Shown: positions 1 through 60,681 of the stretch, piece by piece
Layout of the letters: the number at the start of each line of letters is the position of its first letter
Numbering within the stretch: position 1 is the stretch's first letter
NCBI RefSeq assembly: GCF_028641065.1
Contig: NC_073401.1
Location: forward strand, 22,568,001-22,632,000
Origin: Leucoraja erinacea
Taxonomy: Eukaryota
DNA length: 64,000 nucleotides
Direction of reading: 5' to 3'
Made by a program: the position numbers and the translations under genes
Notes under the pieces: generated by a model
What the model was told of the DNA's origin: nothing
The model's input: only the letters and a program-made list of their open reading frames with translations
The model's database searches: none

Positions 1-1641
1 ACTAAGAGAACATACGCCAAATATCTTAGTAATAATGGAACTTAAGACGCTGCAAATTTAAAACAGCACTGAACCATGGGCTTTTTTGTTCTTTCAAGAA
101 AGCAATGAAGGTAGAAGGTAGTGGTGGCTGGGAGATTCTATGATTGGAGGTCTGTGACCATTAAGGCAAGGATCAATACCACACCTCTGTCGTTTATGAT
201 ATCTATAAATGATTGGAGTTCGGAGTCAGTCACCAACCAGGTCAGCTCCCGATATTACTGTCCACAGGGCCCACAGCCAAAGCCCCTGAAGTCTCGCGTG
301 TGTGTGCGCGTGCGCGGCCATCAAGAAATTGCGTTCCCCCCCCAATGTTTGATAGCGATTTCCGTCTCTGCTGTTAACATACCATTTATGGATGCCTCTG
401 AGAAATGTCACACTCCCTTTCAAATATGTCGCCAACCCCCTGCTTAAAAGCCCACGTTTGTCCTCTGTGCCTTGCAAACTAAGCCCATTTCCAGCCACTC
501 CTTCTTTTACAAGGTCCTTTAATGTGTTGCCCCCTCCCAAATAAAAGCCCAGCTTTCTCACACTTACATGCCTAAATCTGTTCAATCATGCCCTACACGG
601 CATTTAACTGCAATGTCTTCAATGACAAAACTAATGCTTATTATAATGGTGGCAGATTACCCTCTTTGCTATCTTGATTTATTGTGACTGCAACCCAGAT
701 GGTGTTGGTTGCGAGTAAGGATAGGAGAGCTGCTGGAGATCAGTGGGGCATTACAGCTCTATCTACTCCACAAGGTCTTTTAAAATTATAAATGTACCTG
801 TTCATGAATGGCTTGCCATGGTTCCAATAACAATCAAACAAACTAGCGTCAATAGGTAGGATATACGTTTGTCTAATAGTCAAAAAAAGACTCCACTTGT
901 GGCAGCAGGGGAATGGAGAGGGCAGTACATGCCATGTTCATTTATTTTAAGTTAATTCGTGTAAAAATAATATTCCAGTATACAATTCCAAATAGTTGTT
1001 AATCAAACCTGCTGACAATGTTGCTGCAAGTGCTCAAGATGAAACTGAAGCACACCATCCACTCCTTCCTGCATTTCTAGATAAGTGCTGACAGACGTTG
1101 CACGAGTGTCTTTCATAAGCTGAATTTAATTAACTCTTCAAACATATATTTTCTGAGTAAATTGGTGTTATCTATTGCAGTTGACTACTCTAGGCCATAT
1201 GGCCCATCTCGCATTGAATTCATCAACTGATGCAGTGTTAAAGCCTTAATCTAAAACATAGATTCAGGGTACAATATGTTGAAGAACAAGCAAACAGTCA
1301 AAACGCGCTACAGGAACTCAGTGGGTCAGGGAGCATCTCTGGAAGGCATGGGTATGTGACGTTTTGGGTTAGGACTTATCCGGCACCAGCACTTTGTGTC
1401 CTTTTTATAAACCAGCACCTGCAGTTCCTGTATCAGTGAACAAAAGGTCATCTGTTGATCACTTGAAATTGACTTTGAATGCAGTGGTAGGAGAGCACGA
1501 AGGAAGGGTGCCAGGTTCATGATATCTATAGAAAACCTGTGCCACAGATAGCTGCAGAGATATCGACAGGACTTGCGTACATGGCTAAAAACAGTAAGGA
1601 ATTACTGGACAATAGTTGGGACATTTGCTGCATGTACATAC

Positions 1642-1802
1642 TTCATCAAAGGGCTTAGTAATGTTGGTCTCCAGCTGCCAATCCATGGTCCTCCACACTT
1701 TTAAGCTCCGGTCATCAGCTTGGGATGCAATGTACTTTCCGACAGGGTCCCAGGTAAGACCCTTTACCAGGCCCGAATGACCACGTAATGTTGCAATGAT
1801 TT
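1642..1802 (-). CDS. HIRA: HIRA exon 7 ([54 protein letters not shown]); gene continues beyond window start
   Basis: ttacag/gtatgt, 161 nt; near-identical to vertebrate HIRA. Confidence 0.97.
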
Positions 1803-2084
1803 CTGTAAGAAAGTGTTGAAAAGCTTTCACAGCTTATTCATCCTTGAAGCGCACAACATTTCCAACCGATCGCAACCCCCCATAACCTGCATGATCAACT
1901 ATATTGTTGTTATACTTGAGAGTTCAAATGTCATCATTGCAATAGATTCATAGAAAACAAATTCTACATGAAGTGGAAACAATGAATAACTTTGCTGAAA
2001 GTGAATTTTCACCACTGCCTTGTGAGAGATTCCTTTGTATACTAGTTTGAGTTTTGTCTTTACACCAATGAACATCAAACTCAC

Positions 2085-2180
2085 CTGGGAACTTCAGGGC
2101 ATTCCAGATCACAACAGTATTATCAATACTGCAGGAGGAGAGCCAAGCATCGTGGGGTGACCAGGCCAAGTCCATCACAT
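2085..2180 (-). CDS. HIRA: HIRA exon 6 (DVMDLAWSPHDAWLSSCSIDNTVVIWNALKFP)
   Basis: ttccag/gtgagt, 96 nt, WD40 repeat. Confidence 0.97.
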
Positions 2181-4143
2181 CTGGAACATACACAGAATCC
2201 TCAGTCAGTGTACTGTGCATGGAGATGTTGGTCATGCAAAGCTTATGGCAATGTTCCACTTCAGTGAACCATTCATCATTGACAACAAAAATTTAAAATA
2301 CCAACATTTTCTTGGTAAGCTATGGTGGAAATTTTGGATGAAGTGCTTAACCAATCTCAAACCTAGAATGAAAAGTGGGTGGGAAGAGTAAAGAAATAAG
2401 TTATGAAGAATATGAAGGAAGGTTAAGAAGGAGAGAATAAGATTAAAAAGGTACTGACAACTACAAGTATGTTGATATTGAACAATTTGTTGAACAAGCT
2501 GAGCTAATCAGGATGAATGGATAGTGGGCAGTTTGGACCACATAACTTTGGACTGTGTGAGATCTGTTGGTAGATAGATTTTGAGAAAGATGGCAAGACA
2601 AAAAAAAATGTAAGTTGTAGAAATAGCTTGGAATTTGTGGATGTGGAATTTGCATAATGTTCTCTCATCACAACTTTGAAAGAAAATTAGTGGAAAATAA
2701 GATGTAGAAACAAGGAACTTCAGATGCTGGTTTACAAAAAAAGATACAGTGCTCGATTAACTCAATGTGGCAGGCAGTATCGCTAGAGAACATGGAAAAG
2801 TGACGTGTCAGGTCGGGACTTCTTCAGACTGCGTTTTTCTCTGATAACATGAAATGTCCACTATAGACACAAATCAGTTTCACTGAGATTTCGGTCAAAC
2901 TCCTAACCAGCAAATTTGAAATCATAATTCCATCCTTAGACCGAAATCCCTACATGATGATCATGACAACATGTGCAATTACTTAGAGCATGAAATAATA
3001 CAAGACCATGAAATAATTGAGGAAGACCATTGGATATCATTCTGAATGGTTTGCAAATGGTAATAGTACAAATGATGGGACAAGAAAGCGAATTGAAGTG
3101 GAAATAGTGACATTGAAAATAGACAAATAAGAAGTTTAAGATAAAGGTGATTTCAGTAGCAGAGATGGGACATCTCAGGTCATTGCAATGTCACAATAAA
3201 CAATATTAGATTGAACACAATAGGTGTTCTTTAATAACAATTTAAATAAGGTAAAAGTTTCATAGATTCCAATTAGATATAGAATGCGGGTGTGGATTCA
3301 TTGACAGGAGAGATAAAGCCAGAAAATATTTTTTCTATACAAAAATGATACAAACAACAAAAGTTATAAGACAAAGTTAAAAGAATTACAAAGGTTATAG
3401 AAAAAAAATTAAGAATGTTTATATTAAGCATGAAGACAAACTGGCAAAGCATGTAAAATAAGTATTTAAAAAATGCGCAAATGGATAGACAAAGAGGAGG
3501 ATCATTTAGACCCAAAGAGCCAGCTGTACTTAAGACTGAAATTCCTGGATATGTTCATTTTATCATTTAAATCGTTTTTATGGAGGAATCTGAATGCAAG
3601 ACAGTAGAAAAATGAATAGGATATAGAAGAGTTAGTATTTAAAATAAATATGACAATTCACTGAAATTAATTGAAGACATTTTGAAGTCTTGTTCTGTCC
3701 AAACAACAATAGTACAGTCATCCATTCCGATTAGTTGATCTTGTTTCCTGCCTCTGTTCAATTGCATTCTATACTCAGTTAGAACTACACACTGATAATT
3801 CTGAAATTATGAGGGGTCGCAAATTATCAAACAACATATAAAATTTGACATCTTTCGAGAAGACAACAGGTAATTTGTCAAAAGACAGCAAAGTATCAAA
3901 ATGAATGGAGAAGAAAGTGGGAATATTTCTCAAATCTAGATCTGTAATAATATTAACCACTTTCATGAAACTTCATTTATGGAGATCCAATTCAGAGTTT
4001 AAATCTAAATATATAGTAGAAATGTTTAGATGATGAAGGACAAGGAGACCAGTCCCATTTCACGATGCAAGAAATGTTTGAAATGGAAAACCATCTTTTG
4101 CTTCCCCAAATCGTGAGGATAGAACATGACCGTAAACTCTTAC

Positions 4144-4741: not shown

Positions 4742-5785
4742 CTGTAAAGAAACAGACGAGCTCTATAATTTACTGTTTGTATGCAAGAATACATTGAACA
4801 CAAAATTTAAAAAAAAGTATAGCCAAGTTTTCAGGGTATTTACCCTGTGAGAGTGACTTTACAATGTAGGCCAAGACACTTTCACATTGAATCCCATGTC
4901 AGTTGTGATAAAAGAGACCCTCTGATTGTGTTTCAGTGCCCACATTACAGAGAAACTAGCCAAAATGTGAAATAAAATGAATTATCTTTAATTGTACTAA
5001 ATGAAAGCGGTCATTTAATCTGATTAACGCACACTCCAGATGAAATTATACAGTGGTAAAAACAGCAATCTAAAAAATTGCAGTCTTATTTTGGTTGGAG
5101 AGAATTTAATAACATTTCTTGTCATTCTACTGGGCTAAGAAGATACTGACATTGAAAGTTTAAAATGGCTAGTGAAGTAGCTAACGTATAAAAAAAAAAC
5201 TGCCAGAAGAATTCAGCCAGTCATGCAGTATGTGGAAGAAAAAGGATGATTGATATTTCAGGTCATGACCCTGTACTAGGACTGAAAGCACAGAGGGAAG
5301 AAAGCTAGTGTCGAGAAGTGAGAGGTGGGGTGTGAGACAGAGGATGGTTGGTGATAGCTGAAATCAGATGAGGGTGTGATGGACAAATGGAGTAGACAGT
5401 GGAAAGGACAAAATTGCTCAGAAAGGGGTAGTAAGTGATAATTGTAACCAGATAAGGGAGGGATAAAGAGGCCAGGTGGGGAGGTAGCGATAATTGATGG
5501 ACTGGTGAGAGTGGGACAGATACTCTTGGTTACCGGAAACAGGAAAATTCAATATTTATAATCTAATTAGTAGCTTAGGCCATATGAAGTGACGGTTTTA
5601 ATTTATATCTGAAGATTTAATAGTAACTCACAAAAAGTAACCAAACACCACACCAAAATCAACTTTCCACAACCCTCTGAATGGAGTACCATTTTTGAGG
5701 ACTGTAATGAGTGAATAATCATTAAATATACAGCAATATATTTGTGAAATTCTAAAGAAGCTTTCCATGTATATTTTATATGTAC

Positions 5786-9245: not shown

Positions 9246-11751
9246 TTTGACCGATTAGTTTGCAAATAAAGCTTTTCACTGTGTCTCAGTACACATGACA
9301 TTAATAAAACCAAGAGGAATAGGTCAGATAGAACTAAGAAACATTACTCATAGCTTCTTCTGTAATAATCCAGATTAATACTTTCAAATGAAAATATTAT
9401 TTATGGGCGTTTAAAATCAGAATATTTTCCCTTCTTACTGACAACTTAAAGCAAAGTAGCCAGTACAAAAATACATCAACTGATCAAATGGGGAAAAAAA
9501 CATGCCATTAATTTAGGAAGGTAACAAATACAAACTATGAAATCCTTGTGAAGCCAGTTGAAGTTGCCAACCATGATGGAAAATACTAAATCAAACTTTA
9601 TAAAACACTCATAACAGTCCATACAAAATTCACTGATCCATTTACAACCGTGATTATAAATAGGTCATTCGTTAAAATGAGTGTAGCTGTTAACATTCGG
9701 ACAATAAACGTTGTTGCCGATGAACATCTAACAATATTCCATACAGAGAAATACTAATACTGGACTACTTTAAGAGCTTACGAATCAGACAACTTACCAA
9801 ACAATCACACTTGCCAAGCAAGGATGATTAACCAATAACACAATGTTTGTCCATGCAAACGAATGCACCTAAAATACAGTGACATTGCCTGAAAATCTAC
9901 AATAAAATCAATCATTCAGATGCCAATCAGCAACAATTAAGGAACAACTTGACAGGAACCTAAAATATCCTTAAACCTGCAGCAAGGGGTAAAACATTAT
10001 TTCAAGTTTCATAGACAAATACATACTGGTGTCAAGTTTTAAGCCCAAGGTTGTTGAAACACCAAAGTATAAATAAGAAAGATTCTGTTTTGTTTAGTCA
10101 CGTGTACCGAGGTATCGCAAAAAGCTTTTGTTGCTTTATTATGCTCCAGCTCATTCATACAAATGCAAAACTAATTATAGATGCTACAGAGAGGAAATTA
10201 GCAAACAGTAACCATATATATAGGTTGGAAATATTCAAAAAAATCTACTTTTACCCACAGCTCACCTGAAAGTGTAAGTTCTCACAGTGCCAAGTATGGC
10301 TGTCATTTTTCATTAGCTCATCCAAGTAAAAAAATCCTCACAATGCAAGCCTCAACAGTGAACTTGGTCTAGGTTTATTATTGTCACGTCCACTGAGCTA
10401 TTGTGAAAAGCTTTTGTTGCGTTATTGTGCTATCATATCAAATAGTACTATGCATAAATATAATCAGGTCAAACTCAAGTACAATAGGTATAGACTTGTA
10501 TCAGTTGATAGTAGATCCATCTCTGAAAAAGCATGCAAAGAGTCACCACACCTGGAAAGATATTCCACCAAGGTTACTGAGATAAGAAATCCCAGCTCAT
10601 TTTGATCGTAACCCAATAACATTTTCAGTACAAATTACTGAAAACTGGAATTGGGGTTTTAGCTGATTTTCTTTATCCCCAACTGTCTCCCCACAGTACT
10701 GTCCAACACATTATGACATGAAGACAAATTAAGTTGGGCTCTCATAACCCACTCCAAGTGTGACTTGAACCCACATACTTTGCTCTCGATTAAGGATCAA
10801 CAACACAAGATATCAGTTTGGCTCAGTTGGCAGTTAATTGCATTCTTGCAAATTGGTCCCACTAGTGTTACTAATGGTAGAATTCTAACCAATATTTTGT
10901 TCTGGGATTGCAAATCTCAGCCACAGCACGTTTTTGACCATGTTCAGGTTGAAGCTAAAACGGTGCAAAATTTCAAAGATGTCAAATAACAAGAGTTTGC
11001 AACCATGAATATTAATTAATGCAGCCTTACATTTTAAGAACAAACTTGACTTGAATTCCAGACCCTCCCTTAATTTTGTAACCTTATCCTACCCCATGTG
11101 ACAATTAACCAGTATTGAGTTTTCCCTTCTTGAACATTGTACCTTCCTTTACCCCAACTATAGATGCCATGCCTTCAGCATTCTCCTCAAAACACTGCAA
11201 CCTTCCTGTCTGCTAAGACATCTTTTCTCATGACTCTCTTAGCACGCAACAAAAGCTTTTCACTGTACCTCGGTACACGCAACAATAAACTAAAACTGAC
11301 TCTCTTGCCTAGACGTCCATACTTTTTTTCCCCCCTTGCACATATGAAGAATCTTACAGCATGTCATGTTAAAAGGAAGTTGTTAATACAACACAGCAAT
11401 GATAGTCTAGCGAAATAACTACTGCAGAAAACAACATGTTCCAAGTGGAACTTACTTTTTCAATCCTTTTCTGAGGCTAAGCTATAATTAACATTAAGCA
11501 ACAAACTCAACGACATAAATAATATGGTTTAAATGGATTATAAAGCACCAATCCCATCAACAATTTCAAATGCTTCATGGATCACTAGATTCACACTTAC
11601 TTCTTCAGCCATCACGCCCTCAGATTTGGTTATTGTTTGCAATCTTCTCGAAGCTATCATGTGCAAGTCTGTTTTGGTTACACTGTCACAGGATGCGACT
11701 GATCACCAAGCGCAAAATGTTAAATTTCTCTTATCTTCTTGCACAGTTGGG

Positions 11752-11849
11752 AGTCTGAAGAAGGGTTTCGGCCCCAAACGTTGCCTATTTCCTTCGCTCC
11801 ATAGATGCTGCTGCACCCGCTGAGTTTCCCCAGCATTTTTTGTGTACCT
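11752..11849 (+). repeat. Penelope-type short repeat (hammerhead core with GAAA>CAAA)
   Basis: Same family as 13869-13963 and 28288-28473. Confidence 0.8.
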
Positions 11850-13868
11850 GGGAGTTACATTAACTGTTTGATGCAAGTATTGATTTAAAGAATGCCCGAC
11901 ATTTACAAACAACAGAGAACCACTAATTTCTCTTCTGTTAGTTCAGCTGTGAATAGTCTGCATTAATTCACTCCATTGGCATTCCTGTTAGCATAGCTAC
12001 TTCAGCCACTTCTAAACCTTTCTGTGCCAATTCACTCCTGCCATTGTTTGCCTAACACTGCCTTTTCTCTCTCCGCTTCCAATCTACTCCTGTTAATCCT
12101 AAAAAGGAACTGTCCAGTATTCAGAAAAAAAGCACGATGCTGAGATTCTGCGCTTGGAATGCAAGACAATCAAATCCTAACAATTGTCATCCCCTCATCA
12201 AAAGGTGGAAGGTGGCCCATCTGGTTAATAATTCCCTACTCAGTACTCACAATATGTTTTTGTCAGGTCTTACCTCAGCCTTGCCCAAAATATAGACAGA
12301 ACAGTTGCAATCCGACTATTCTTTAAAAAAAAAATACACAACAAAATTGAATAAGAATCTGAGAAAATTCTCCACTGGCAAGAATCACGTTGAACACAAA
12401 AGAAAATAGGTTATTTGGTGATCGATCTCAGCCTCAAGGTATTGAACTAAATGTACCAAAGGAAATTGCCCTAGATCCAAGTATCTCCTATTGCTTCAAG
12501 ACCTTCCCTGTCATGCAAGGTCTCTCATATGAATGTGCATTTATTCAGTTTCATTCATAACTCTTTAGATTTCAAGGTGGTTTGTAGCCATATGCAGCAA
12601 GACATGGATAACACAAATTCACACTCGCCTAATTGGCTGTTTGAATAATTCACCTTCTAATGATGTATACAACAGACTGAATAAACTTGTTATACCAATA
12701 AGAAGAGCTTCACAAATTCACACACCAGTCGTTGGTTTTCGTTAAATCACCAATCTTAATTTACAGGCTTGTTGCTAAAACTTGGCAAGTAACATCTGCA
12801 CCGCACAAGCATCAGACAACGATCTTCAATAATAGGGTGTGTAACATGTCTTCTTGACTACCATTGTTGACAACGATACCAATAGTATTATTTACCACTA
12901 TACAAGCAGCCTCAACCCTCACAATATTTTAACTAGGCTAGCCAAAGAAACATCGTGAACAGATTAGAAGCTGTGAATTCTGCACACGGTGACAAACTTG
13001 ACAAAGCCTTTCCACCATTCACAAAGCACAACTCAGGAATCGAGCGATATATTCTCCTTTTGCCTAGATGATTGCCGTTCATATACCAAAGTTCCACACC
13101 ATCCAGGACAATGCACAAATCTGTCTGAAAGATTCATTGAAGAAGATTCATTCACCAAAAGCATAGTGTGTACCAATTACAAGATTTATCACAGACACGA
13201 AGATCTCTTTGACATTACTTCTCAAATTTGTGACCTCTCCCATCAAGAAGTCAGCAGGTGCATGGAATGCCACCTGCAATTTCCCCAAGTCACACAGTCT
13301 AACAAGAAAATATATCACACCTTCATTACGCCAATGAAAACCTTGCAACTCCCTAACAAATCTTTGTAAGTATCTTCACCAAACACCACAGAAATTCCTA
13401 AATGATGGCTCATCATCACCATCGCAAGGGTAAATGGCCATGACCAATAAATCCAACACAGCGAGTGACTCCCTTATTGGATGAATATAAAAAATACACA
13501 ATTTAATGAATATTTATAATAGAAAACATATTGAATTGTTTTCTTAACTTGGAAAATCTCTCCAAGGTGCTATATACCCCAAACAGAACATTATAAAAAT
13601 GAGCAAATACATGGTCAAGAGTGTTGAAGTGAGTGAGGAGGAAAATTTAAAGCAAAACCTTCACTTTCTAATCATTCTCAACTTGAAAATCTGCCATTGA
13701 TACTACAGCAGATCAAGTGCCTCGCTAAACATAAACATGTAGGCTTTTCTTTGCAGTTATACAGCCGATTGCCCATTGTGACTATTGATAGGCATTTGAA
13801 ATCTTCTCTCACACAAATTATAAACTCATCGTGCCAACAGAAAAACTTCCCGCATTCACTCATCAACT

Positions 13869-13963
13869 GGTACACAAAAAAGCTGGAGAAACTCAGCGGG
13901 CGCAGCAGCATCTATGGAGCGAAGGAAATTGGCAACGTTTCGGGCCGAAACCCTTCTTCAGAC
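13869..13963 (-). repeat. Penelope-type short repeat with intact hammerhead core (13934-13961)
   Basis: Minus strand CTGAAGA A GGGT TTCG GCCC GAAA CGTT; flanked by duplicated ATTCACTCATCAACTG. Confidence 0.8.
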
Positions 13964-14511
13964 ATTCACTCGTATTCACTCATCAACTGTTGGAATTATT
14001 CTAATCACATGTCATAATTGCTTTCCTTCGGTTGATCCCTGCGCACACGACTGTTGAGCAATGCACTTCCTTTCATTTGAAACCCTTCCCACAGTTTACT
14101 TCTCCATGGACAATACCTGTGGATCACCATGTACTATTCCTTCAGGTCCATCATTACACGAGCCGTGCATCCCCCAGCCCTGAATCTTAATGCCGCTGAA
14201 AACCTGGTCAGATTTCCAGACCCTTCCACAGCCCATTGCTATTCCTCGTAACCCTCTTGGCTCTTGGACAACTTGGACCCCGACGTCCACATCCAGGCTT
14301 CCATCGTCGCTTCCCCACATCACTATTTCATCCCCAGGCTCCAGTCTCAGGCGCGGTGCCGTTCACCCCATGACAGGTGGACTCACTCGGAAAGTCCTGC
14401 AGCTCCTCTGACTCCCTCCCTCCACTGACCATTCTCAGTCCGAGCTCACACACGCCTTCCAGTCACTGCACGCTCCCTCTCCTCACCCACCCCATCCTTG
14501 CAGCCGCTCAC

Positions 14512-14548
14512 CATTGTGATGGACCCAAGCAGGTTTGAGCAGCTTCAT
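14512..14548 (-). CDS. HIRA: HIRA coding exon 1 (MKLLKPAWVHHN G)
   Basis: ATG at 14548, 37-nt exon, donor G|gtgagc, in a CpG-rich region; matches the HIRA N-terminus MKLLKPTWVNHNG. Confidence 0.95.
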
Positions 14549-16101: not shown

Positions 16102-16967
16102 GTGAGTACTGACCTCGTGGAGAGGCCGTAGCTGGCGGCGTCTGGACCGGGATCGGGGGGTTTAGGGTCGGCTCGGCTGATAGTGACTGGCCTGAGGCGG
16201 GACCCGGGCCGAGAGACTGCCTCAAACGGAGCGGATTTGAGGCGACATTAATCCCATGGATAGGTTATATATCTATTAACTGGGGAACCAGCACAAAGCG
16301 CCTCGGGAAAACGGTTCCCGGCAGGTAAGTAAGGTCCACGCATTTATATAAAATGCCTTACAGATCCTCGGGGTTCCCAAAACATATTGCCTGAATTAGG
16401 TATTGTTTATTACAATATTAAACGTGAACACATATTACATGAATTGATAAACATAATTCTGGTGCTGGAAAGGACACAACGTGCTGGAGTAGCTAAGCGT
16501 TTCGGGTAGGGACCTTTCTTCAGCCTGTATCGTGATGATTTGTAGGATATTCCAGTCTCTGCCCAATGACAGTGGAGGCTTAATTATTGAATATATTCAA
16601 GAAAGAGGTGGTTTGTTTTTAGATGTTCAGAAAAGCGCCACTGAGGTAAAAGGTGAGCATAGATTTTCATGAGTGGTGGGGCAGGTATGAGGGACTGAAT
16701 GGCCTATTTATACTTTTGTTTACAGCATTATATGTCCTTATCCATTTGAGAGATGGATTTCTGAATTGAATCTGTTTTGAAGATATGACCCCTAATCGTG
16801 CAGCACCTCCCTTAATGCTACACTGGTGTAATTCTAGGTTTGGGGTTTGGGAAGTGCTAAAAGCAACATCCTTTCCAGGCCCAGTCAATGTTTTGATTAT
16901 AAAAGCACAAGATGAATCTGAGTCTTGTAACTAAAAGCTAGAACTGATTTTGTTTTTTCTCTCACAG

Positions 16968-18180: not shown

Positions 18181-20026
18181 GTCTGTGTGTTCTGAAACAT
18201 TAGTTGTCAATAGGAAATGTATGCTTTCCCCATTGTTTTCTTTCCACTGTAGGATTTTCATTCCAAACTGCGGGTAAGAATTTATTTTCCATTCTGAATT
18301 CTCTTTAGACAATATTGAAATAATGTTGCATTATTTTCGTTATTTATCTTTCAAATGGGAAAAGGGCGATTGGTCCAACCTGTGAGAGAGTGTTAATGGT
18401 TCAGGGTAAAGTTGAGCGAAAAGAAAACTAAGGTGAGATAAGAGAGGTGGTTAAAACTAGTGAATACAGGCGATGAGATCAGAGTGAATCCAAGGTTAAG
18501 CATGTGTTCATCAGAAAAGACAAGATGTTGATTATACATTTAGCAAGTTTGTAGCAACAAGGAGAGTTTGTATATCAGGTATACCCAAATCGGGACATCT
18601 AATGACTGAGCATCAAAATACAAATTGGGATAAGAAGTAGGTTACTTGAACCTAAACCAGCATTTAATGTGGCTTATCTAATTGTAAGCTCAATTCCTTA
18701 GTAACCTTTCCTTCTCTTGTTTATCAACCATGTACCAACCTCATTCTTAAATATTCAAAGATCGTGCTTACAGTGCCCTTTTGGCAAAAGAGAGCTCCAA
18801 ACACTCTTGACCCTCTGAGAGAAATTTCACCTCATCTGTCTCAATTGGTGAGCCCTTTAATTTTAAATAGTGAGCCCAAATTCTGGATTCCCATGGAAGA
18901 GAAAACTGTTCCCGCGTTCAACCTTGCAAGAACACTCAGGATCTTGTATTTCAATTGGATTTTCTTTCACTAATCTAAATGCTTGCAGATGTCAGGCCTT
19001 CCAATCTTTCATCATTTGACAACCTGTCCAGTTTGGTTGTTGGTCAATTAAATCTCTGGATTACTTTCAGCTCATTTACATTCTTCCATAAAAAAGGAGA
19101 CATATAGGGTGCACAGTACTCCAAATTTGCTCTTGTTAATATACTCCTTTATCATGCTATTTCTTCAAAAGAACACCAACCAATAGTCAAACATGATTTC
19201 CCTCTAAATACCATGTTCATACAATTTGAGCAGTTAGTCCATTTGGATGGAGTTCTTTAGACATTATTGGTTTACTCCCAAATTGACAGATTAACTGGTA
19301 ATTTTCATATTACTGTTTGTGAAAGCTTGCAGTGTTCATAATGACTACATCAACCCCTAAATCACTTTTGAACATGAGAGACTGCAGATACTAGAATATT
19401 GAGCAAAAATACAGACAGATGAAGGAGCTCAGTGGGTCAGGCAGCATCTATGGAGTGAAATGGACAGGTGTTATTTGGATCAAGATCTTTCTTCAAGACA
19501 CACATTAAAACATCCCAGTTTCCTAAAACACTTGTTACAGTTTGCTTTTTCTTTAAATTATGACATTGGAACACGACAGTGAATTCTTCTCCAGACGTAC
19601 TGTTATTTAAAGAAATAGATTCTACCTAGACCTGTTGCCTCAGTGGCTGAAAACCAGGTTCAGTCTTGATCTCTGCTGCTACCTGTGTGGAGTTTGCTTG
19701 ATCTCCCTGTGACCTTGGTACTCCAGTTTACTTTCGCATCCAAAAGATGTGTGGATTAAAGGTTAATCAGCCATTTTTAAATTGTACCTCATGCAGGTAT
19801 GTGGTAGAATCTGGGGAGTTGAAGGGAATGTTGGGGAATAAAAATGGGTCATGGTAAGATCAGTATAAATGGATGGTTGATGGTTGGGGAGAACCTGGTG
19901 GGTCAAGTGACCTGTTTCCGTACAGTTTTCATAATGACTCGTATTAAAGCATAAAGTGAACCTCAAGTACTAATTATGACTATACACATAAAATGCCCTC
20001 AATAACATGTTATCTATGGTGCCTAG

Positions 20027-21011: not shown

Positions 21012-21097
21012 AAGCCAGGTTTGAACTGAGAAAGAGGGAAAATAAATTGGTTTTAAGTTGAAGAAAAGGTGAGGGTTGAACATGTAGGAACAAAGGG

Positions 21098-21595
21098 AAG
21101 ATAGACACAAAAATCTGGTGTAACTCAGCGGGCCAGGCATCATCTCTGGAGAGAAGGAATGGGTGACGTTTCAGGTCGCGACCCTTCAGACTGTTAGGGA
21201 TAAGGGAAACGAGAGATATAGACGGTGATGTGGAGAGATGAACAATGAATGAAAGATGCAAAAAATTAACGATAATAAAGGAAACGGGCCATTGTAAGCT
21301 GTTTGTAGGGTGAAAATGAGAAGCTGGTGCGACTTGGATGGGGGAGGAATAGAGAGAGAGGAAATGCCGGGGCTACCTGGTGAGAGAAATCAATATTTAT
21401 ACCACTGGGCTATTCAATGTTCTTTATCTCTCCACATCACCTTCTATATCTCTCGTTTTCCTTATCCCTAACCAGTCTGAAGAAGGATCTCGATCTCGTC
21501 ACCCATTCCTTCTCTCCGGAGATGCTGCCCGTCTTGCTGAGTTACTCCAGCTTTTTATGTCTATCTTCGGTTTAAACCATCTGCAGTTCCTTCTC
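21098..21595. repeat. Inverted pair of Penelope terminal-repeat (pLTR) copies
   Basis: 21100-21240 is approximately the reverse complement of 21420-21570. Confidence 0.8.
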
Positions 21596-21794
21596 ACACA
21601 TTTAGTGCAAGGGAATACCTCTCATAGGGTTACATTGTTCTATGGAGACAGTTAGAGAGAGATCGAAAGGAACACATGCTATAAGATGAGATAAAATAGC
21701 CAGCTCTTAGCGCAGCTGGATAACGTAGCAGAAATGGCCATTTCTGATACTGACAGTGAACTATCTGACATTCTAGGAGTTGGGAGTCTGGAAG

Positions 21795-28164: not shown

Positions 28165-28287
28165 ACTCCAGCATTCTGTGTCCATCTTCGGTGTAAACCA
28201 GCATCCTTCCTACACTTTCCATCAGAGTGACCTGTCTCTTCTATCGTAGTCTGTGATCATGGAGGTGTCAGACCAAGTGACACGAGT

Positions 28288-41023: not shown

Positions 41024-41083
41024 CTTAGAGAGAGAAAACAATTCTGAAAGTTACTGTGTTAAAGAAATCAAGAGATAATGAAG

Positions 41084-41211
41084 CTGAAGAAGGGTCTCGA
41101 CCTGAAACGTCACCTATTCCCTCGCTCCATAGATGCTGCCTCACCCGCTGAGTTTCTCAAGCATTTTTGTCTACCTTCGATTTTTCCAGCATCTGCAGTT
41201 CTTTCTTAAAC
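41084..41211 (+). repeat. Penelope-type short repeat with hammerhead core (41084-41111)
   Basis: CTGAAGA A GGGT CTCG ACCT GAAA CGTC; flanking direct repeat ATGAAGCTGA (41078, 41212). Confidence 0.8.
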
Positions 41212-42024
41212 ATGAAGCTGATGGTACTCAACTGAAGACTGTTCCAATATCAGTCATTCCCCGACCTAGGCTGTTTTAGTGCAGTTTACCATTGCATCTA
41301 TCCAACCAAATAGATATTTTGTGTTGAATTCACAAAAGCAGGACAAGCTTAATCCAACTCATTATCTGCCAGTTCACGTTCCTTCATCACATGGGGGTGG
41401 GGGTGTCTTTCGTTGTGCTACAAACAGCTCTGTCCATCAATAGTGGCAGAAGAGACTGCAGATGTTGGAATCATGAGCAAAAGTAAAGTGCTGGAGTCAG
41501 GTAGTGGAGGGAAATGCACAGATAACGTTTCAGGCCAGGACTTTTCTCCACATCGAAGAAAAATTCTGACGCCAACCGTCATCTGTCCATTCATCCTTTG
41601 AATTCTTCCAACAATTTGATTTTTGTTCGGGCCTCACTATTGATGATTAATTTATTTTTTCCCCAGAAACATTTGGCTCCTGATCTTATAGTCTAAACAT
41701 GGATCAAGGCGGTAAATTCCAACAGTAACGAGGTGAAGTGACTGCCCATAACAGTAAGGCAGCATATGACTAAGATTGTATTTTCCAAATGCTTGTGAGC
41801 AAAGCTACAGGAAATCCACCAGTTCAATAGTAGGTAAAATTTAAAAAGAGATACTGTCCAGAAAAAGGGAAAGCAGCATAATTTAAGGAGGGACTAGAAC
41901 ACACAGCAGATAGATCAATGTAACTGTATATCCTTAAACAACAAGCTCCTTGCAATCATTAGTGATGATCCTCACCCTAACCCTAACTTCAACGGAGAGA
42001 GGTTGAGCTTTCATTGGATCGTAA

Positions 42025-44615: not shown

Positions 44616-46355
44616 ATTTATCAGAATAATTTAGACCATTTTCACATTTCGCTGTTATCTCATGCCTTTTTTGTTCATCTGTCCAACCATCTGCCCATCA
44701 ACCACACACGTTCACCTATTGCCTTTCACGTGTTATCCTGCCCCTATCTTCGAGCTGACTTTCCCTCACTCAGCTTTCCCCTCCATGTTTCCAATAGTAC
44801 TTTCTTGAAATTATATTCCACTGTATAAGGTCGCCTCGAAGACTATCGAGGGGCAACATAATAGATGTTCATAGAATGATGAGGTGCACAGATAGGATTG
44901 TTAGGCAAAATCTTTTCCCCCCCCCCCCCCCCCCCCCCAATGTTGGGAGTCTAGAATTAGAACACATAGGTTTAATGTAAGAATGGAGAAATTTCAAAGG
45001 AGATCTGGAAGGCACGTTTTTTACACAGAGGGTAGTAGTTATCTTGAATTGGTGGTAGAGGGAGATGCAATTAAAAGCTTTAAATAGCATTTAGACAAGT
45101 ACTAAGATAGAAAAGGTAAAGAGAGATGTGGCTCTAATACTGAGGTGGTGGGAAAGGGCTTGCTTCTCTGCAGTATGATTGCATGATCCCTATACAAGTC
45201 AGACACTTGTGTCACCACAATCATAGAGTGTGTGGGTCTAGGGAGATTGACTGAACCAAACGCTGGACTATCTCTAAACCTAAAGCTTGCACCCAATGTC
45301 TGTGAATCACATGGTTAGCCCACCCAGAAACATTGGAAAGGAACACACGTTGGGAAGCACAACTTCCCACATGTGAGAATGTTCATTCCAAACAATTCAA
45401 TTAAAAAAAAAAGTAAACTGCAGATGTTGGATATCTGAAACAAAAATGGAATATGCTCAGCAGATCAGGTAGCATCTGTGGAAAGAGAAACAGTAACATT
45501 TTCAGGATGAAGACCCTTCATCAGAACAGAGTGGGAAAACAGGTTGAAGGGAATGAAGAGAAATACTGCCTGTGAGCAAATGAAATGAAAGGCAGCTTCA
45601 GTGGGAAGAGGAACAAATCGTTCAGGTTTCAGGTTTGCAACCTTCCTATTTTTGTCAAAATGTATCTCAATGTTACCCAGTGTATTAAAATGAATATTAT
45701 TTCTATTGATTAGAATATCATCTGCCACAAGACTTAATTTGCCATTAAGCAAGAAAGCCTATTGGGTCACAACGCATAGACTGTATTTCTTTTTGATGTG
45801 GACTATCGTTGGAGAAAACTATTGTGTGCTAGATAGGAGCCTGAATTAGTAAATGTGGTAAAGAAAAAATGTAGATATGTTACTTTCAGGCATTGTTTTT
45901 GGTTGCCTGTTTTCTCAAGCCAAATCCCCCTTTGGGGATTTGCCCTCCATACCCTTTCATGTTTATCACAGTGCCATGATTGAGAATAATTTCAACAAAA
46001 TTATTGCAAAACCAGAGTGCAGTTTGTTGTTGAAAACAGTGCTGTTGAGCTTCGATTTTAATCATATAAATTTCACGAAAATACACTTAATTTTATATAG
46101 ATACAGACCATGTTGGACAAGGTGAGAAGATAAGAGTTAGAATACGTAGCGGCTCACATGGACTTTGAGCCCTGGCAGGCTCTGCTGTAAATTCTGCAAA
46201 CTTTCATAAAGATCTCCAAAACAAAATTTGACATAGAGCAAATATGTTTCAGGGTAGAGACACAAAGTTCTGGAGACAGTGAGATCTAGAAACGGTAGGG
46301 AATTGTCGTAGATGGACCAAGTGAATTTGAGTGCAGGATGGAAATTAGTTGTGAG

Positions 46356-47415
46356 GTTACCCGTGAACTATACCCAAACTCTACCTTCACTACACTGACA
46401 ACTGCATCGGTGCCACCTCCTGCACCCATGCAGAACTCACTGACTTCATCAACTTCATGGCTAATTTTCCATCACGGGAGACAGACTATCGACAGACATC
46501 TATTACAAACCCACCGACTCCCATAGCTATCTAGACTACACTTCTTCCCATCCTGCTTCCTGTAAAGACTCTATCCCCCACTGCCAACTCCTCCGTCTAC
46601 ACCGCATATGTACCGAGGATGTTGTGTTCCATACCAGGACATCAGTCATCTTCATTCTTTAGGGAATGGGGGGTTCCCCGCTATCATTATAGACGAGGTT
46701 CTCACTGGGTTCTCCTCGATAACCCACAGCTCTGCTCTTGCTCCCCCTTCGTAACAAGGGCCGCCTTGTCCACACCTTTTACCCAATGATCCATTGCATA
46801 CAGCACATAATCCTCCGACATTTTCACCACCTCCAACGGGATCCCACTACTAGCCACATCTTCCAATCTCCATCGCTTTCTGTTTTCTGCAGAGACCGTT
46901 CCCTCTGCAAAGCCCTGGTCAATGTCCCTTCCCTTCCCACCCAAACCACCCCCTCCTCGGTACTTTCCCCTGCAATCGCAGGAGATGCAACACCTGTCCT
47001 TACACCTCTCCCCTCGACTCTGTCCAAGGAACCAGAGTCTTTTCAGGTGAGGCAGAGGTTCACTTGCACCTCCTCCAACCTCATCTTCTGTATTCGCTGT
47101 TCCAGGTGTGGACTCCCGTATATCAGCGAGACCATGCGCAGACTCTGCAATCGTTCCACTGAACACCTCCACTCAGTCCGCATAAACCTTCCTGATCTCC
47201 CAGTTGCACAGCACTTCAACTCCCCCTCCCATTCCCACTGACCGTTCTGTCCTGGGCCTCCTCCATTGTCAGAGTAAGGCCCAGTGCAAATTGGAGGAAC
47301 AGCACCTCATATTTCACTTACACCCGAGCAGTATGAACATTGACTTCTCCAACATCAAATTTCCCTCTCTCCATCCCCTCCCCTTTCCTCTCTCCATCCC
47401 CTCCTCTTGACCCAA
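46356..47415 (+). mobile_element. Penelope-like retroelement fragment (RT C-terminus + GIY-YIG endonuclease), decayed
   Basis: ORF 46738..47241 has FTCTSSNLIFCIRCSRCGLPYISET.RRL..R..EH (PLE GIY-YIG with CxxC); followed by KLEEQHLIF. Confidence 0.9.
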
Positions 47416-47767: not shown

Positions 47768-48828
47768 GAAACGTCACCCATTCCTTCTCTCCAGAGATGC
47801 TGCCTGTGCCACTGAGTTAATCCATCATTTTGTTCTGCACTGGAAATGGAAAAGACAAGAAAGAATGCAAAAAGTAGCAGGTGAAATTATGCAGAATTTT
47901 ATACTGCATTCCTGCTTAATTGTTTCTGGCTGAACCTAGTTTTTTGGCAGATATAAGAAGCCCTTAGCTGAAGCAGAGCCTCATTGAAATATACATGTTT
48001 GTGATTTCTACATCATGTCACTTAAGACGAGTGTAAATCAAATACTTGCTAATTTCATGTAAAATAAAGAAATTAAGCAGATTCTTTAGAAAGAGCATTT
48101 TGATTTCACATTTCTTGTATTGAAATGCATATTAGGCAAAACAAAATTTGATTCAATAAGACACCAAATGGAATAGCCAACTAGATTTCTCATACTGGGG
48201 GTGTTCTCCTCTTGGTATAGTCACTCATCATGACTGATGGGAACCTTGAAATATTGAATGGCAGTTCCCATTCCAATTGCTAGATTACAGCCCAATATAA
48301 ATGCAACATTCTCTAAACCTGCAACCTTTGAAAGTGTTATTTAGTGAATATCACCACTCTTTTCCCTTCAGTTTTTACCCAAGACTTTAGATTTGGATTT
48401 AAGGATATTATTGACCTTTCTTGCTCGTGTTTAGATTTTATCTTGATTATTCCCCATTTATAGAACTATAGTCAGAGACATCCATCAATGATTGAATGCC
48501 AGCTAAATAGGACAAATGACTTCATTAACAAAAGCAAAAAAATAATAATTACAAACCATAAGTGTCGGAAAACTGTTTTACTAAAGGAAGATTATATATA
48601 TACAGATCAAAAGTCACATTTGTAAACGCACCTAAATTATTTCAGTTTAGCATTGCATTCTTGAACCACTCACTTCAGTCAAAATCAATTGTCCATTAAA
48701 ACTAGACACACAAGCGTGAAAGCCAGTCTGCAAGATAGTGCAAAAGATTCCACTTGAGAACCACAAATGGTTTTGTTGAAAAGTGACCAGTCCATTTCAG
48801 CTCCTGTGTCTTTCTTTACCATACCCCC

Positions 48829-48862: not shown

Positions 48863-48907
48863 ACCCCCCGTTCCCCAAATGGAAAAGGTTCTTCTTCCAC
48901 CACAGTC

Positions 48908-50199: not shown

Positions 50200-51950
50200 G
50201 ACAGGGCTGGTACACAGGTTAAAGATTTAAATTTTAGGGCAAGGCCAACTTTAATGGTAATACACAGGAGCTTGGAAAAGTTGATTGGAGTAGGTTGTTT
50301 GCAGACAAAAAGATCGAAACAGTTAAAGGCTTTTAAAAATGAAAGGTATGCATGTTCCTGTTAGGGTGAAGGGCAAGGCAGACAAGAGTAAGGAACCCTG
50401 GATGACAAGAAAAATGGAGGCATAGGTCAGTTATAGGCAGCTGGGACCAAGTGTGTTCCTCAAGGAATATTGGAGATTGAGCAGCATACTCAAGGAAATA
50501 GGGGGGGGGGGGCATGAGATACCTCTGGCAGATAAGATAATGGCAGACCCATAACAGATTTTATAAGTATATTAAGATTAAAATTATAACTAGAGCAAAT
50601 AGGGCCCCCAAAAATCAAAGTGGTCATCTATTTGTGGGCTCGCAGGAGATGGAGGTTCTCAATTAATATTTCTCCTCTTTCACTTCAAAGACACGAAGAC
50701 TAGTGAACTTGAAAAAGTTAATATCGATGTCTTGAGGAGTCAAAAATATGCTGAATGTCTTAACATTCTCCAGAGCTTAATCAGGTATATCCTTAGCCAG
50801 AGAAGAAATTTCAGCAACGGTCCAAGAGGGTCTCGACCCAAAACGTCACCCATTCCTTCTCTCCAGAGATGCTACCTGTCCCGCCAAGTTACTCCAGCAT
50901 TTTGTCTCTACCTTCGATTTAAACCAGCATCTGCAGTTCTTTCCTATACAAATCATCATTAGACATGTGTGAAGTGCCAGAAGATTGAAGGGCAACTGAT
51001 GTTATGCCTCTATTTAAGAAAGGTTGTATTAAAAAACCTAAGAATCATAGACCAGTAAGCCATAATATCTGCGGTTACTAGAGAGGATTCTGAATAATAT
51101 ATAAGCATTTGGAAATATATAGGTTCATTCGGCATCATCGGTGTGACTCTGTGCATGAGAGATTGTCTCTGAAATGGAATCTTTTGAAGTAAACAAGATT
51201 GATGCAGAGGTGGAGTTGTTTTTCAGACTGGAGGTCTCTGATTAGTGGTGTGCCAGAGGGATAGGTGCTGGAGTCTTTGCTGTTTGACAACTATATCAAT
51301 GATCTGGAAGAGAAAGTGCAGGCATTTTTGGAAAGCTTACGGATGAGACTAAAATAGTTGGTATCGTAAACAGCGATGATGGTTACCAAGTATTACAGCA
51401 GGGTCTTTGACAAACTGGTCCGCCTCAGGGAATTTAGTATAGAAGTTGGGATGTTAAGTTACAGTTGTTCAGGACATTGATGACACTACACTTGGAATAC
51501 AGCGTTGTATTTTGATCAACATGCTATAGAAAAAATGTCATCAAGCTGGAAAGGGTGCCTTATATTTCCCAGGACTCAAGGGTCCGAGCTATATGGAGAG
51601 TTTGGGGAAGATAGGGCTTTGTTCGTTGAAGTGCAGGAGACCAAGGGGTGATCTTATAGATTTATAAGATCAAGAGGGACATAGATAAGGTGAATGCAGT
51701 CTTTCTCCCAGTTAAGAAATCAAGCATAAGAGGGCATAAGTCAAAGGTGAGAGAAAAAGATTGAATGAGAAATTGAGGATCAAATCTTTCACACAGAGGG
51801 TATATCAAATAGTTGAGGCAGGTACAACAACATTTGGACAAGTACATGGATAGGAACGGTTTAGAGGAATATGGGCCAAACTGGACAAGCTTAGATGAGG
51901 TATGGAAGAGTTGGGCTGAATGACCCACGTCCGTGCTGTATGACCATCAC
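50200..51950 (+). mobile_element. Old degenerate CR1 ORF2 remnant (contains a Penelope-type repeat at about 50825-50945)
   Basis: Recognisable CR1 segments (V.PLFKKG, SGVP.G.VL, HLEY) with many disablements. Confidence 0.7.
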
Positions 51951-52444: not shown

Positions 52445-53510
52445 CTGAGAACACAAATATCAAACCAAATGTGACTGTTTTAACCCCTATTAGGAATTCC
52501 CAGCAAATCTGTTGGAGTGGGATGGAAAAGACACCAGACAAGTGAGGTCAAGAGAAATAAGAGACAATTTAGTGGTTTAGAAAAAACAGAATGTTTGGTG
52601 TTTCATTTATCATTTGCAAGTGTAGGCATTCAGTAACTGTGTTTACCAGTCAGTTAAAGTTTATACAGATGTGATGTTGTAAGATTTATTAGCCGCCTTG
52701 CTTTCAAGTTTGGGTAGGGGTGTAAGAAATAATACTCCACTGTAATTAGTCAAATTTGCATTTTTGTCTCTATTTATTATACTTTTTGAAGAACTCAGCA
52801 AGTCAAGCAACCTCTGTGGAGACAAAAAGGATATGATGTGTTCACGTTTTGAATTGGGGCCCAGCATTGGGACTGGGGCAGGGAGAGGAAAAGGGAGACA
52901 AATAGTGGGGAGTGAAGGGAAAAGAAAACAGGAACTAATAGGCGAGAGGTGGAACCAGATTTGGCAGGGAAGCGGGTGGGGAAGACAGGCAACTGGAGCC
53001 AGGTGGGGAGGGATCAAAATCATCTTTAAAGGAGCGAACGATGACATGATGCTATGCGGTTGGTTTAAAGCTCCTGTAAGTCCCACTCCTCCATAGACCC
53101 ACATCTGCATCAAAGCCAGAGGAGGCAAAGACTAGGGTTTGCTTGATAACATTTATGAGAAATCCCTCCTTCACTTTAATGGTAACTGGGAGAAGGCTGA
53201 AGCGCAAACAAAGTGGGCAGGTTAGATTCTGTCCAACATTCTTCTTGAAAATGGGTTTGAAAGATTTAGGTAGAGGAAATTGTTTGCTAACAATTCAGGA
53301 TGGCAAAGTAACTTTACTTATTAATTTTGGAAAAATAATTTAAGTCAGGACATTTGTTTAAAAAAACCCCACAAGGCAACAGGCAAATTTTACATCAAGT
53401 AAAGAAGTATTTTAAAAGAAAGGTTGACTTTCCAATGGAGGAATCTGGTGCACTTGGAGGAAGCAAGGAAAATGTGCAGACTCTGCACAAATTAGCTTTT
53501 CCACTCTGCT

Positions 53511-55999: not shown

Positions 56000-56706
56000 C
56001 TATTGTTGCAGGGAAGGTGGCGGTGTTGAGAAGAAATGGGGGAGTAAAAGAAGGGGGGGGGGAAGATTAGTTGAGGGTGGAGATGGGAGGATGTGGTTAG
56101 TGGTGGGATTACCATGGAGGTGATGTGAAGGATGCAAAGGCTGGTGAAGTGAAACGGTGAGGATTAGGGGAACTATCCTGTTCTTTCTGGGGGAAGGAGG
56201 AGCAAGTGCAGAACGATGAGACACAGAGGAGATACTGGTGAAGGATCAATCTATGACAGAAGTGGGAGAAGAACGTTTCCTAAAGAAAGAGGACATCTCA
56301 GATATCCTAGAATGGAAAGTCTCATTTTGGAGCAGATATGGTGAAGACCAATGAATTCAGAATAGGGAATAATGAATAATGCAAAAGGCAGGTTGGGAGG
56401 GAGTGTAGTCCAGATAACTGTGGGAGTCAGTAGGTTTATAGTAGATGTCAGTGGACAGTCCATCCCCTGTGGTAGAGACGGAGAGATCATGAAAGAGGAG
56501 AGAATGTCAGAAATAGTCCAGGTGAATTTATGGGCAGGGTGGACGTTGTGGTGGTTAATGTAATCAGGTGTTCTGCACAGGTGCAAGTGGCATCGCTGAT
56601 ACCATCATCAATGTAACAGAGAAAGAGTTGAGGGATAAGGCCAGTGTACACCTGAAATAAAGACTGTTCGGCAAAACCGACAAAGGCCCATGCGAGTGCC
56701 CATGGC
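56000..56706 (-). mobile_element. Penelope-like RT fragment, decayed
   Basis: Minus-strand translation gives AMGTRMG and FLCYIDD RT motifs; similar to 46356-46900. Confidence 0.8.
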
Positions 56707-58243: not shown

Positions 58244-59879
58244 CTAGAAACAGAGCGGAACATGGATTAAATCAACTGCAAAGATAACAAAAAAATGGAT
58301 TATTGTTCAGATGCATGCACTTTTGGCATGACATCTACTGGGGTCCAATCAACCATAACCCATTCAAGTTAACAAAATATTGGCATACAAAGGGTATTGG
58401 GACAGATTTGGTGCCCTGGTTTGGTTAATTTAGGACACTACTAAATATACATATGGATACATAACAGCCAGATGAATTAGCTCTTTATCTGCTTGAGTTA
58501 CATCGTAACTTAATACGTATTTCAGTTCTATTTCTTACCTTCATTCATGTTCCGACCCATTTATTAAACCTGTTGATCTCAGTTATGAAAGTTTCATTTG
58601 CCTTGGCATCCATCTTCTTTTGAGTACCGGCTTGCACATCAGTGCAAACCCGTGTACAAAACATTGCATCAAACTAAATTCCCAAATGATTTTGCTCTAT
58701 TTTTAAAGTTTCCGTCTTTACTTTTATTTCTCGAGAAGTTCCCAAATCTAAACTCTGTCATCCAGAAAGACTAAATCTACAGGCACACGATGACACCACT
58801 ATTTGCTCGGTTCCCACCAAATCACTCACTATCTCAACTTGGAAATCCTTCCTTCTTTACTCAGAATTTTCCCCAGACAGCAGAGGGAGCACCTTCACTC
58901 CCTCAGGACAGCAATTCTTCATGAATGTAGCTCACTTGAGGGTGTTTACAGATACAGGTACTTAATGCTGGTTTCACCAGTAGGGTTCACTGAATGAGTA
59001 GGGCTCAATTAATTAAATTAAAAAAATATCTTTCAAATGAATGAACTTCTCAGTATCTTGCAAATGAAGTTGTTTTAAATTATATAAAGACCACTCAAAC
59101 GCTAAGTGAATTCTAACAAACCTGTGACACTTTAAAAGTAGCTATAACACCATTTTCTCCATGCTTAGATGATAATCACATATAATGATTAAACTAAATA
59201 GCACAAAGTTTTCACTAAATCTCAGTAGAAGGGACAATAATAAACCAATATCACCAGGTGTGGTCTACTCAGTGGGCAGAAGTGGCGCAGAGCATATAAA
59301 TTCTTAGTATTTCTAACCCTTCTTAAGGAGATAAACAAGTTGCACGCACACAGTTGAATAAAACGTTTTACATACAATGAGTGCATTGAGTACTGCTGCA
59401 GTGCAAATGTTTTAAGCATTTCTTAATAAGAATCACGATCAAGACAACTGAGTGGATTATCCGTTTTGGTTGAGGAAGTATAATGGATTTATTACCAAAA
59501 GCAACTGTCTCTCACGAGCACCAGAAGATTTAATATTCAATACATCTTTTATCCAAATGGCAATGTGGGCAGGCATGATAAATTTCATAGTTAAACTCTT
59601 AGAAATGTAGAATTTGCAGAAAGTTTTTTTAAATTAATATTTTTAAAATATTATCACCTTTGAGTAATGTACAATTGCTTAATTCAAATGATTTAATAAT
59701 TCAATATACTACTTGCTGATCTATGCGGCAAAGGAATGGCATCCCTACGAACATAAACCAAGTTGGCTGGCCGTCTGGTTAGAACAGTTATATTCCAAGC
59801 AACAAGTGTTCCAAACACCAGTCCACTTCCCAGCTCCAACCTCTAGGGTCTCCTTTGGAGATGTGTACAATGCCTTCGT

Positions 59880-59965
59880 GGATAGACAAAAATGCTGGAG
59901 AAACTCAGCGGGTGAGGCAGCATCTATGGAGCGAAGGAAAAAGGCAACGTTTCGGGTCGAGACCC
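59880..59965 (-). repeat. Penelope-type short repeat truncated at hammerhead stem II
   Basis: Same family; CGTGGAT duplicated on both sides. Confidence 0.75.
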
Positions 59966-60042
59966 GTGGATGCTCATTTACAAGCTGTGGTGATACCGGT
60001 GATGTGTCCCGCTAGTCAAATTCTACAACAACCCTCACTCAC

Positions 60043-60164
60043 CCAGTGAGGCAGATAACAGATTCCTTCCTCGGCCACAAACTCCAAAACACCGCAATGT
60101 GTCATTCGGTCAGTTTTTCGGTTGATCAGTTTAAAGAGCATTGGATAGGTGATGTTCAGACGAC
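60043..60164 (-). CDS. UFD1: UFD1 exon 4 ([40 protein letters not shown])
   Basis: tttcag/gtgagt, 122 nt. Confidence 0.97.
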
Positions 60165-60681
60165 CTGAAAAATAAATCAAATGGTTTCAGTCCAGCCACT
60201 AAAGGCAGAACAAGGGCACAATGGATTTCAGCAATAGGGAAATTACAATAAACCGAGGGAATAGAGCAATGGGAATAAATAATGTGAACGGTTTCAAAAA
60301 TCAGAAAAATTATAACACCACCTTATATTCTAATTGGGTAGCATGCAACTGAATGGTATGAACTCCGTCCTCTCCTCTCAGGTTTTCTTCCCTTTTGTTT
60401 ACCTATTTCACTCCTTTTCTCCTTCCCCCCCCTACTTAAATTCATCCCTAACTGCCCACATACCAATATTCCTCTTCCTTTGTTCATCTTTCATAACCCC
60501 ACCCAAACTGGGTTCCATCTATCCACCACCCCTTCTTTCTATGATTCCACCCACCAGCCTGTCTCACCCCTCCCTTTCACTTCTATATACAAGGTACCTA
60601 TCATCTACACTATTGGTCCTGATGAGAGGTCTCGACCTGAAACGATGACCACCCCTTTGCGTCAAAAGAAGCTACTTTACC

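Follow-up and report, generated by a model that had tools for sequence, protein, structure and literature searches.

The genome of the skate Leucoraja erinacea (2.19 Gb) carries a dispersed repeat that contains a minimal hammerhead ribozyme motif. We describe it from a stretch of 64,000 nucleotides (nt) of contig NC_073401.1 (G000:C25:22568001-22632000), called the window below, and from samples of the rest of the genome. The repeat is very probably the terminal pseudo-long terminal repeat (pseudo-LTR) of protein-coding Penelope-like elements (PLEs); its dispersed copies are heavily 5'-clipped inserts that carry the motif whole, and the motif is likely inactive in host transcripts.

When the window is searched with a profile of its own copies (E<1; the seed copies match by construction), 32 copies of about 95 or 130 nt appear between 1288 and 61755, as against none in ten Markov shuffles. 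The first-pass annotation of the window had described a dispersed family of over a dozen copies, which holds. Exactly two of the 32 keep an intact CUGANGA-N-12nt-GAAA-NN-UH core, 13934-13961 (-) and 41084-41111 (+, with a G.U closing pair); these are the two that had been called intact, the other cited copies being variant or partial. An extra half-copy at 26416, beyond the profile's 32, is split by another insertion. Genome-wide, the two main stem types noted earlier have 41,537 exact matches and a looser intact-core pattern has 76,461, with 0 for the reversed-pattern control of each. In a sample of 1.55 Mb from 11 large genes, whose strands were inferred from domain hits, 679 copies make up 4.0% of the sequence; extrapolated from this intragenic sample, we estimate about 1 million copies in the genome.

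A terminal module of protein-coding elements

Followed upstream, copies reach a pyrimidine-rich untranslated region (UTR) and then the end of an open reading frame (ORF). The order of a full unit is motif, ORF(s) with reverse transcriptase (RT), CX4CxxC linker and GIY-YIG, UTR, motif. RVT_1 and GIY-YIG matches lie just below the Pfam cut-offs in L029, L121 and L123, and the Cys and His of the GIY-YIG CCHH residues were read from the translation. A genome search with the RT region gave 131 scored matches at 88-100% identity, many in frames of more than 700 amino acids. The module stands about 110 nt past the ORF end in 19 of the 20 long copies fetched. Two of the 20, L121 and L123 (3975 and 3992 nt), are whole units bounded by a motif on each side, with a partial tandem lying upstream. 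Remnants of RT and of GIY-YIG also occur in the window, as had been annotated (Table 1).

Six copies (L117, L118, L119, L121, L123 and L131) have an upstream frame of more than 400 amino acids that is discontinuous with the RT frame in all six; the one copy scanned has no Pfam match in it. The break reflects either homopolymer errors or a real frameshift.

Between six lineage consensuses, the 60 nt upstream of the motif (UTR) are 0.48-0.70 identical, the motif itself 0.76-0.97 and the 62 nt downstream 0.69-0.98. Since the UTRs differ while the motif and the following 62 nt are common, constraint acts on the whole terminal module and is not confined to the core. Several ORF-bearing lineages have this module as their 3' end, with different UTRs leading into the same sequence. 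At L112:1300-1630, an element end has about 30 nt of the flank of another insertion, L111, between UTR and motif, although L111 lies 39 kb away; gene conversion or a template switch is possibly responsible.

The short copies share this origin. We classed 653 usable copies, 552 of them well aligned, counting positions from C3 of the core: 225 are short, 219 have a head-to-head (inverted) partner, 61 are UTR-linked and 47 ORF-linked. Their 3' ends form two groups about 36 nt apart, at +86-99 (230 copies) and +120-136 (197 copies). The 5' ends of short copies peak at -5 to 0 (94 of 225), and only 6 of 225 lie near the cut site (+28). Of 234 copies, 38 lie between exact target duplications of 10-16 bp, compared with 49 of 2327 (2.1%) mismatched-pair controls, which bears out the target-site duplications annotated earlier; junctions anchored on these duplications, and thus independent of alignment, fall at -13 to +4 in 25 of the 38. 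The 5' ends therefore mark the 5' edge of the motif and not its cut site: the motif is contained whole, and the copies were not trimmed by its cleavage, contrary to the annotated idea of a ribozyme-delimited family. Over 14 sites, all eight of the commonest haplotypes are found in both short and long or ORF-linked copies, which argues against the separate non-autonomous lineage that had been proposed.

Head-to-head pairs comprise 261 of the 679 copies in the 11-gene sample. In host introns such pairs would fold into double-stranded hairpins whichever way they are oriented.

Origin of the 5' hot spot and of tandem arrays

Going by Frangieh et al. (2024), the element protein would begin reverse transcription internally, at +93 and +129 from the core, with RNA uncut at the motif as its template; any cleavage would need the element protein and a partner motif. 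Many short copies would be made from the upstream pseudo-LTR, near the RNA 5' end, and such templating would explain the hot spot just before CUGA. We see an even chance that reverse transcription starts inside the upstream repeat, reaches the RNA 5' region and there stops, folds back or jumps.

In the youngest subfamily, only 37 modules continue into the 5' body of the element, and by spacing 19 of these fall in three clusters. Head-to-tail arrays were found at four of five fetched loci (two chosen for array-like spacing), with units of 250-340 nt holding one motif each; their identity to the L123 unit is 87-100% and mostly exceeds 94% (Table 1). The third of the clusters by spacing lies at C1:24.09 Mb. 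The four arrays end at +94 to +133, and each locus has its own junction. As the array units include sequence beyond the tail, the template was the upstream pseudo-LTR, copied into short inserts. The arrays are very young and resemble newborn retrozymes, each the product of a single locus. We tentatively propose a birth of retrozymes in which reverse transcription starting in the upstream pseudo-LTR runs off close to the RNA 5' end and either stops, giving about 1 million short copies with the hammerhead at their start, or makes repeated backward jumps, giving 250-340-nt arrays in which neighbouring motifs are able to dimerise and cut; we hold this possible but somewhat doubtful. Local tandem duplication at the DNA level may instead account for the arrays, and a splice acceptor or a plain RT stop may account for the hot spot.

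It is unlikely, in our estimate, that the motif instead cuts only in multimeric element RNA, whose ends religate into circles that template the inserts, with the intact motif as the ligation junction. Cervera and De la Pena (2014, PMC4209133) proposed this model; it fits long copies that exceed unit length, the existence of 250-340-nt arrays and the covariation of helix I across families of other organisms (see below). However, the array junctions join +210 to +288 to -39 to -54, are locus-specific, vary within arrays and do not coincide with the cut site. No circle-type joint stands among the best-supported RNA joints listed, and catalytic mutants had no effect on insertion in vitro in the study by Frangieh et al. 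(2024, PMC11167929).

A splice acceptor at the hot spot, made of the pyrimidine tract and CAG before UCUGA, is quite unlikely; splicing would then supply a longer helix I, as in Drosophila virilis Penelope, where the intron end maps to helix I (Cervera 2014, PMC4209133). YAG-U does stand directly before CUGA, after a pyrimidine-rich UTR, in all six lineage consensuses, but the few letters between duplication and motif differ from copy to copy and are not a single exon, and the RNA joints listed include no GT..AG joint to the hot spot. Upstream of the motif, the most frequent RNA junction resembled a splice and turned out to be genomic: it is an insertion in the 3' region of a linker-histone gene (L111:1526-1622, an intact antisense copy with a target duplication). 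It accounts for about half of the roughly 1,000 loose ends in RNA of a related species, and since it is present there the insertion is likely shared between species.

We also judge it improbable that the short copies are a self-propagating non-autonomous family (similar to short interspersed elements or retrozymes), transcribed from short copies and mobilised in trans. The sharp 5' boundary would suit such a family, together with the target duplications, the very high copy number and a putative initiator-like sequence, TCAGT, at the boundary. The main haplotypes, however, are common to ORF-linked lineages, several UTRs lead into one module, and an Rfam scan finds no tRNA, 5S or 7SL head at any window copy.

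The hammerhead motif and host RNA

The annotated motif, a Penelope-type minimal type I hammerhead with palindromic ACGU, is confirmed in its features: the CUGANGA/GAAA/UH core, an extra base between 9 and 10.1, G10.1-C11.1 and a palindromic 15.2-16.2. Helix I has 2 bp in the skate family, as short as had been stated, and helix II 4 bp. An Rfam scan of the window gave no hammerhead family at E<=5.

A core pattern from which helix I is absent matched at least 120 loci on metagenome contigs, 25 of which have a related GIY-YIG end at E<=0.05. Related loci were also sought with the endonuclease region, and none was found in metagenome or viral collections. Among 129 motifs from other organisms, 121 had enough flank and fall into 25 groups. 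Pairs 1, 2 and 3 of helix I are formed in 25, 20 and 17 of these groups (12.9, 11.6 and 10.7 when shuffled), and position 17 is never G in the 121 motifs. In an alignment of 21 groups (4 near-duplicates dropped) and 3 copies from this genome, helix I has 36 double-sided covariation cells versus 17.1 in shuffles, a value reached in 0 of 500; slid controls are far lower. The three stem II G-C pairs are imposed by the search pattern and hence carry no evidential weight. In the skate family pairs 1 and 2 fit, whereas pair 3 is a mismatch.

Stem II compensation within the genome was considered by eye and rejected. The closing-pair partner is T in 42 of 57 rows with A and in 37 of 43 without, and an A.A mismatch subfamily makes up about 70 of 100 rows at the second pair; there is no compensatory excess. 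Many identical copies of this A.A variant are clustered near the contig end, at G000:C1:161-169 Mb. Between subfamilies stem II differs only by U-A versus U-G, and when families with a longer stem II were sought, the 100 rows listed of 4,527 were mostly indel variants of this one family. Of the covariation check suggested by the first-pass annotation, the helix I part thus succeeds across other organisms' families and the stem II part fails within this genome. Nor is the core better conserved than its flank within the genome: across 180 copies, non-CpG core positions match the consensus at 0.91 and downstream positions at 0.92 (p=0.31). This is as expected of dead-on-arrival copies decaying neutrally after insertion.

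Intact copies probably do not cut host RNA to a degree that matters. In the 11-gene sample, intact cores are 27 sense and 25 antisense (95% confidence interval 0.38-0.66), so the sense depletion looked for is absent and an effect on pre-mRNAs is not supported; fully paired motifs are 23 sense and 12 antisense, and all copies 332 and 347. Stem II is predicted to be unformed in 30 of 30 intact copies, with a median pairing of 0.0025 versus 0.43 in 115 motifs of other organisms; its 5' strand is predicted to pair with the 3' flank or with GAAA instead. Shuffled sequences fold as well as the module (z -0.2 to 1.3), and we therefore do not claim the competing hairpin as a selected switch. According to Cervera and De la Pena (2014, PMC4209133), single minimal motifs showed no cleavage and dimers low cleavage; according to Frangieh et al. 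(2024, PMC11167929), Poseidon is cleaved only with the element protein, and cleavage is dispensable for insertion in vitro.

In RNA of a related species, the module is read at about 9,000-fold depth, compared with a few hundred for the ORF end and 1-30 for the 5' body. No read-end pile-up occurs at the cut site, a weak null because the libraries are fragmented, only 1-5% of the reads in each run were used and many joints lie beyond those listed. Runs X21 and X22 are single-cell libraries with a several-fold strand asymmetry over ORF end and module. A sequencing-run search gave no RNA run among the matches listed.

Cleavage of host pre-mRNAs by intact intron or UTR copies at a rate that matters is very improbable: the 76,461 intact-looking cores and the abundance of the module in poly(A) RNA of a related species speak for it, and the balance of sense and antisense cores, the 2- and 4-bp helices with no predicted fold and the 261 of 679 copies in fold-back pairs, which would sequester the motif, against.

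Several points weigh against our interpretation as a whole. Element sequence directly precedes the motif in 29 of the 37 body-linked upstream modules, and the RNA therefore does not always start at the hot spot. Some apparent -4/-5 starts could stem from lineages missing among the references, and two minor haplotypes, with 5 and 3 copies, are confined to short or inverted copies. The orientation sample holds only 52 cores from 11 large genes with inferred strands, and a mild sense depletion therefore remains compatible with it. Folding models ignore protein and tertiary contacts, and the RNA libraries are of poly(A) type and from a related species.

Window features and known systems

The window holds HIRA (-), MRPL40 (+), a PANTS-like gene and UFD1 (-). 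The intact copy at 13934 was correctly placed in the sense orientation in HIRA intron 1, because the first exon begins at 14548 (-) and the second is found at about 6482-6556 (-). A hAT dimerisation-domain fragment (27521-27895) lies in a stretch that apparently interrupts a module copy between 27190 and 28164. Two copies of a near-perfect inverted repeat of about 210 nt, resembling miniature inverted-repeat transposable elements and giving a spurious MIR820 match, are found at 29026-29250 and 42019-42234, and long inverted repeats with arms of 124-125 nt (87-88% complementary) at 33234-33523 and 63314-63677. A preference of putative CR1-like elements for the module was rejected as not significant (8 of 70, p=0.07).

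Table 1 Features of the window and tandem arrays elsewhere in the genome (window positions unless a contig is named; array units counted from C3 of the core)
Feature	Position	Strand	Remarks
Decayed copy	1288..1381	-	5' part missing
Decayed copy	2721..2829	-	damaged stem II
Old decayed copy	5190..5285	-	
Short copy	11751..11862	+	G12 changed; antisense in HIRA intron 1
Short copy	13866..13966	-	intact core 13934-13961; 16-bp target duplication; sense in HIRA intron 1
HIRA coding exon 1	14512..14548	-	fixes intron 1
Variant copy	16463..16530	-	internal deletion
Old decayed copy	19398..19501	-	
Copy with upstream element UTR	21082..21189	-	head-to-head with 21470 copy
Copy with upstream element UTR	21470..21603	+	GAAA deleted
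Old GIY-YIG remnant	21799..22183	-	Penelope-like element
UTR end and 5' half of motif	26390..26430	+	broken by another retroelement fragment
Three partial tandem copies	26934..27190	+	at 26934, 27017 and 27117
3' fragment of module	28164..28205	+	
Fold-back pair	28285..28474	.	75-nt arms, 100% complementary; join inside stem II
Two partial tandem copies	28807..28992	-	
Head-to-head pair	29368..29545	.	
Head-to-head pair	29713..29923	.	
Decayed copy	30220..30311	+	
Short copy with tail	41078..41212	+	intact core; G.U closing pair; 9-bp duplication
Old head-to-head pair	41460..41621	.	
Old CUGAUGA-type copy	45421..45530	-	
Broken RT-thumb, Cys linker and GIY-YIG remnant	46271..47350	+	Penelope-like element
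3' half of module	47768..47853	+	likely end of 46271-47350 element past inserted fragment
Copy with tail	50822..50950	+	CUGA lost; antisense within UFD1
Old decayed copy	52781..52874	-	
RT remnant	56198..56684	-	Penelope-like element
Copy beginning at stem II	59873..59966	-	sense within UFD1
Old CUGAUGA-type variant	60611..60682	+	damaged helix III
3' fragment	61716..61755	+	
Array L359	G000:C1:131.86 Mb		unit -54 to +210
Array L358	G000:C1:58.72 Mb		unit -50 to +288
Array L361	G000:C9:41.12 Mb		unit -39 to +248, with variants
Array L362	G000:C23:3.11 Mb		unit -52 to +218, at least 8 units

With no sense-strand depletion in the sample, a vertebrate seems to tolerate such motifs by the tens of thousands in its pre-mRNAs. 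The young arrays and the hot spot, in an element family that keeps near-intact ORFs, make a pseudo-LTR origin of retrozymes testable; if true, our proposal for their birth would provide a direct mechanism for this origin.

The kind is not new, since minimal hammerheads located in the terminal repeats of Penelope elements, mainly in scattered and truncated copies, were published in 2014; what is added is the copy number, the 5'-end hot spot and the young 250-340-nt tandem arrays. For cartilaginous fish, no report of these motifs turned up in a literature search confined to a collection with few subscription journals and outside the repeat databases.

The motifs of metazoan PLE pseudo-LTRs (Cervera and De la Pena 2014, PMC4209133) share with ours the CUGANGA core, the extra base before stem II, G10.1-C11.1, the palindromic 15.2-16.2, the position in terminal repeats, the mostly single dispersed copies and the opposite-strand pairs. 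Schistosoma motifs have a helix I of 4-5 bp and a helix II of 7-8 bp, in contrast to 2 and 4 bp here; D. virilis has a 2-bp helix I, as here. The 76,461 cores compare with about 4,000 in coelacanth and 9,000 in Xenopus, counted there with another descriptor.

By their layout, the elements are similar to endonuclease-bearing PLEs of the Neptune/Nematis type (Craig et al. 2021, PMC8557442): RT, a CX2-5CxxC linker (CX4CxxC here), a C-terminal GIY-YIG with CCHH, the partial tandem, an inverted 5'-truncated partner and a 30-40-bp tail. They differ in the long N-terminal frame, discontinuous with the RT frame in the six copies having it. In the green anole element Poseidon (Frangieh et al. 2024, PMC11167929), two 3' ends likewise define the tail, whose 30-40 bp were traced to two internal RT start sites; the RNA template is also unprocessed, and its cut site is not marked by RNA-seq read ends. 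Poseidon belongs to a different clade, and protein-assisted cleavage was demonstrated there.

Finally, the arrays elsewhere in the skate genome are akin to non-LTR retrozymes (Cervera and De la Pena 2020, PMC7229834), with one-motif units of 250-340 nt from a pseudo-LTR. Unlike these, the copies in the window are dispersed and not in arrays, and the motif is minimal and not canonical. A pseudo-LTR origin of retrozymes was proposed by Li, Clavereau and Pollet (2026, bioRxiv 10.64898/2026.07.22.740005), whose study includes one chondrichthyan and may list such families for it; the skate arrays fit that origin.

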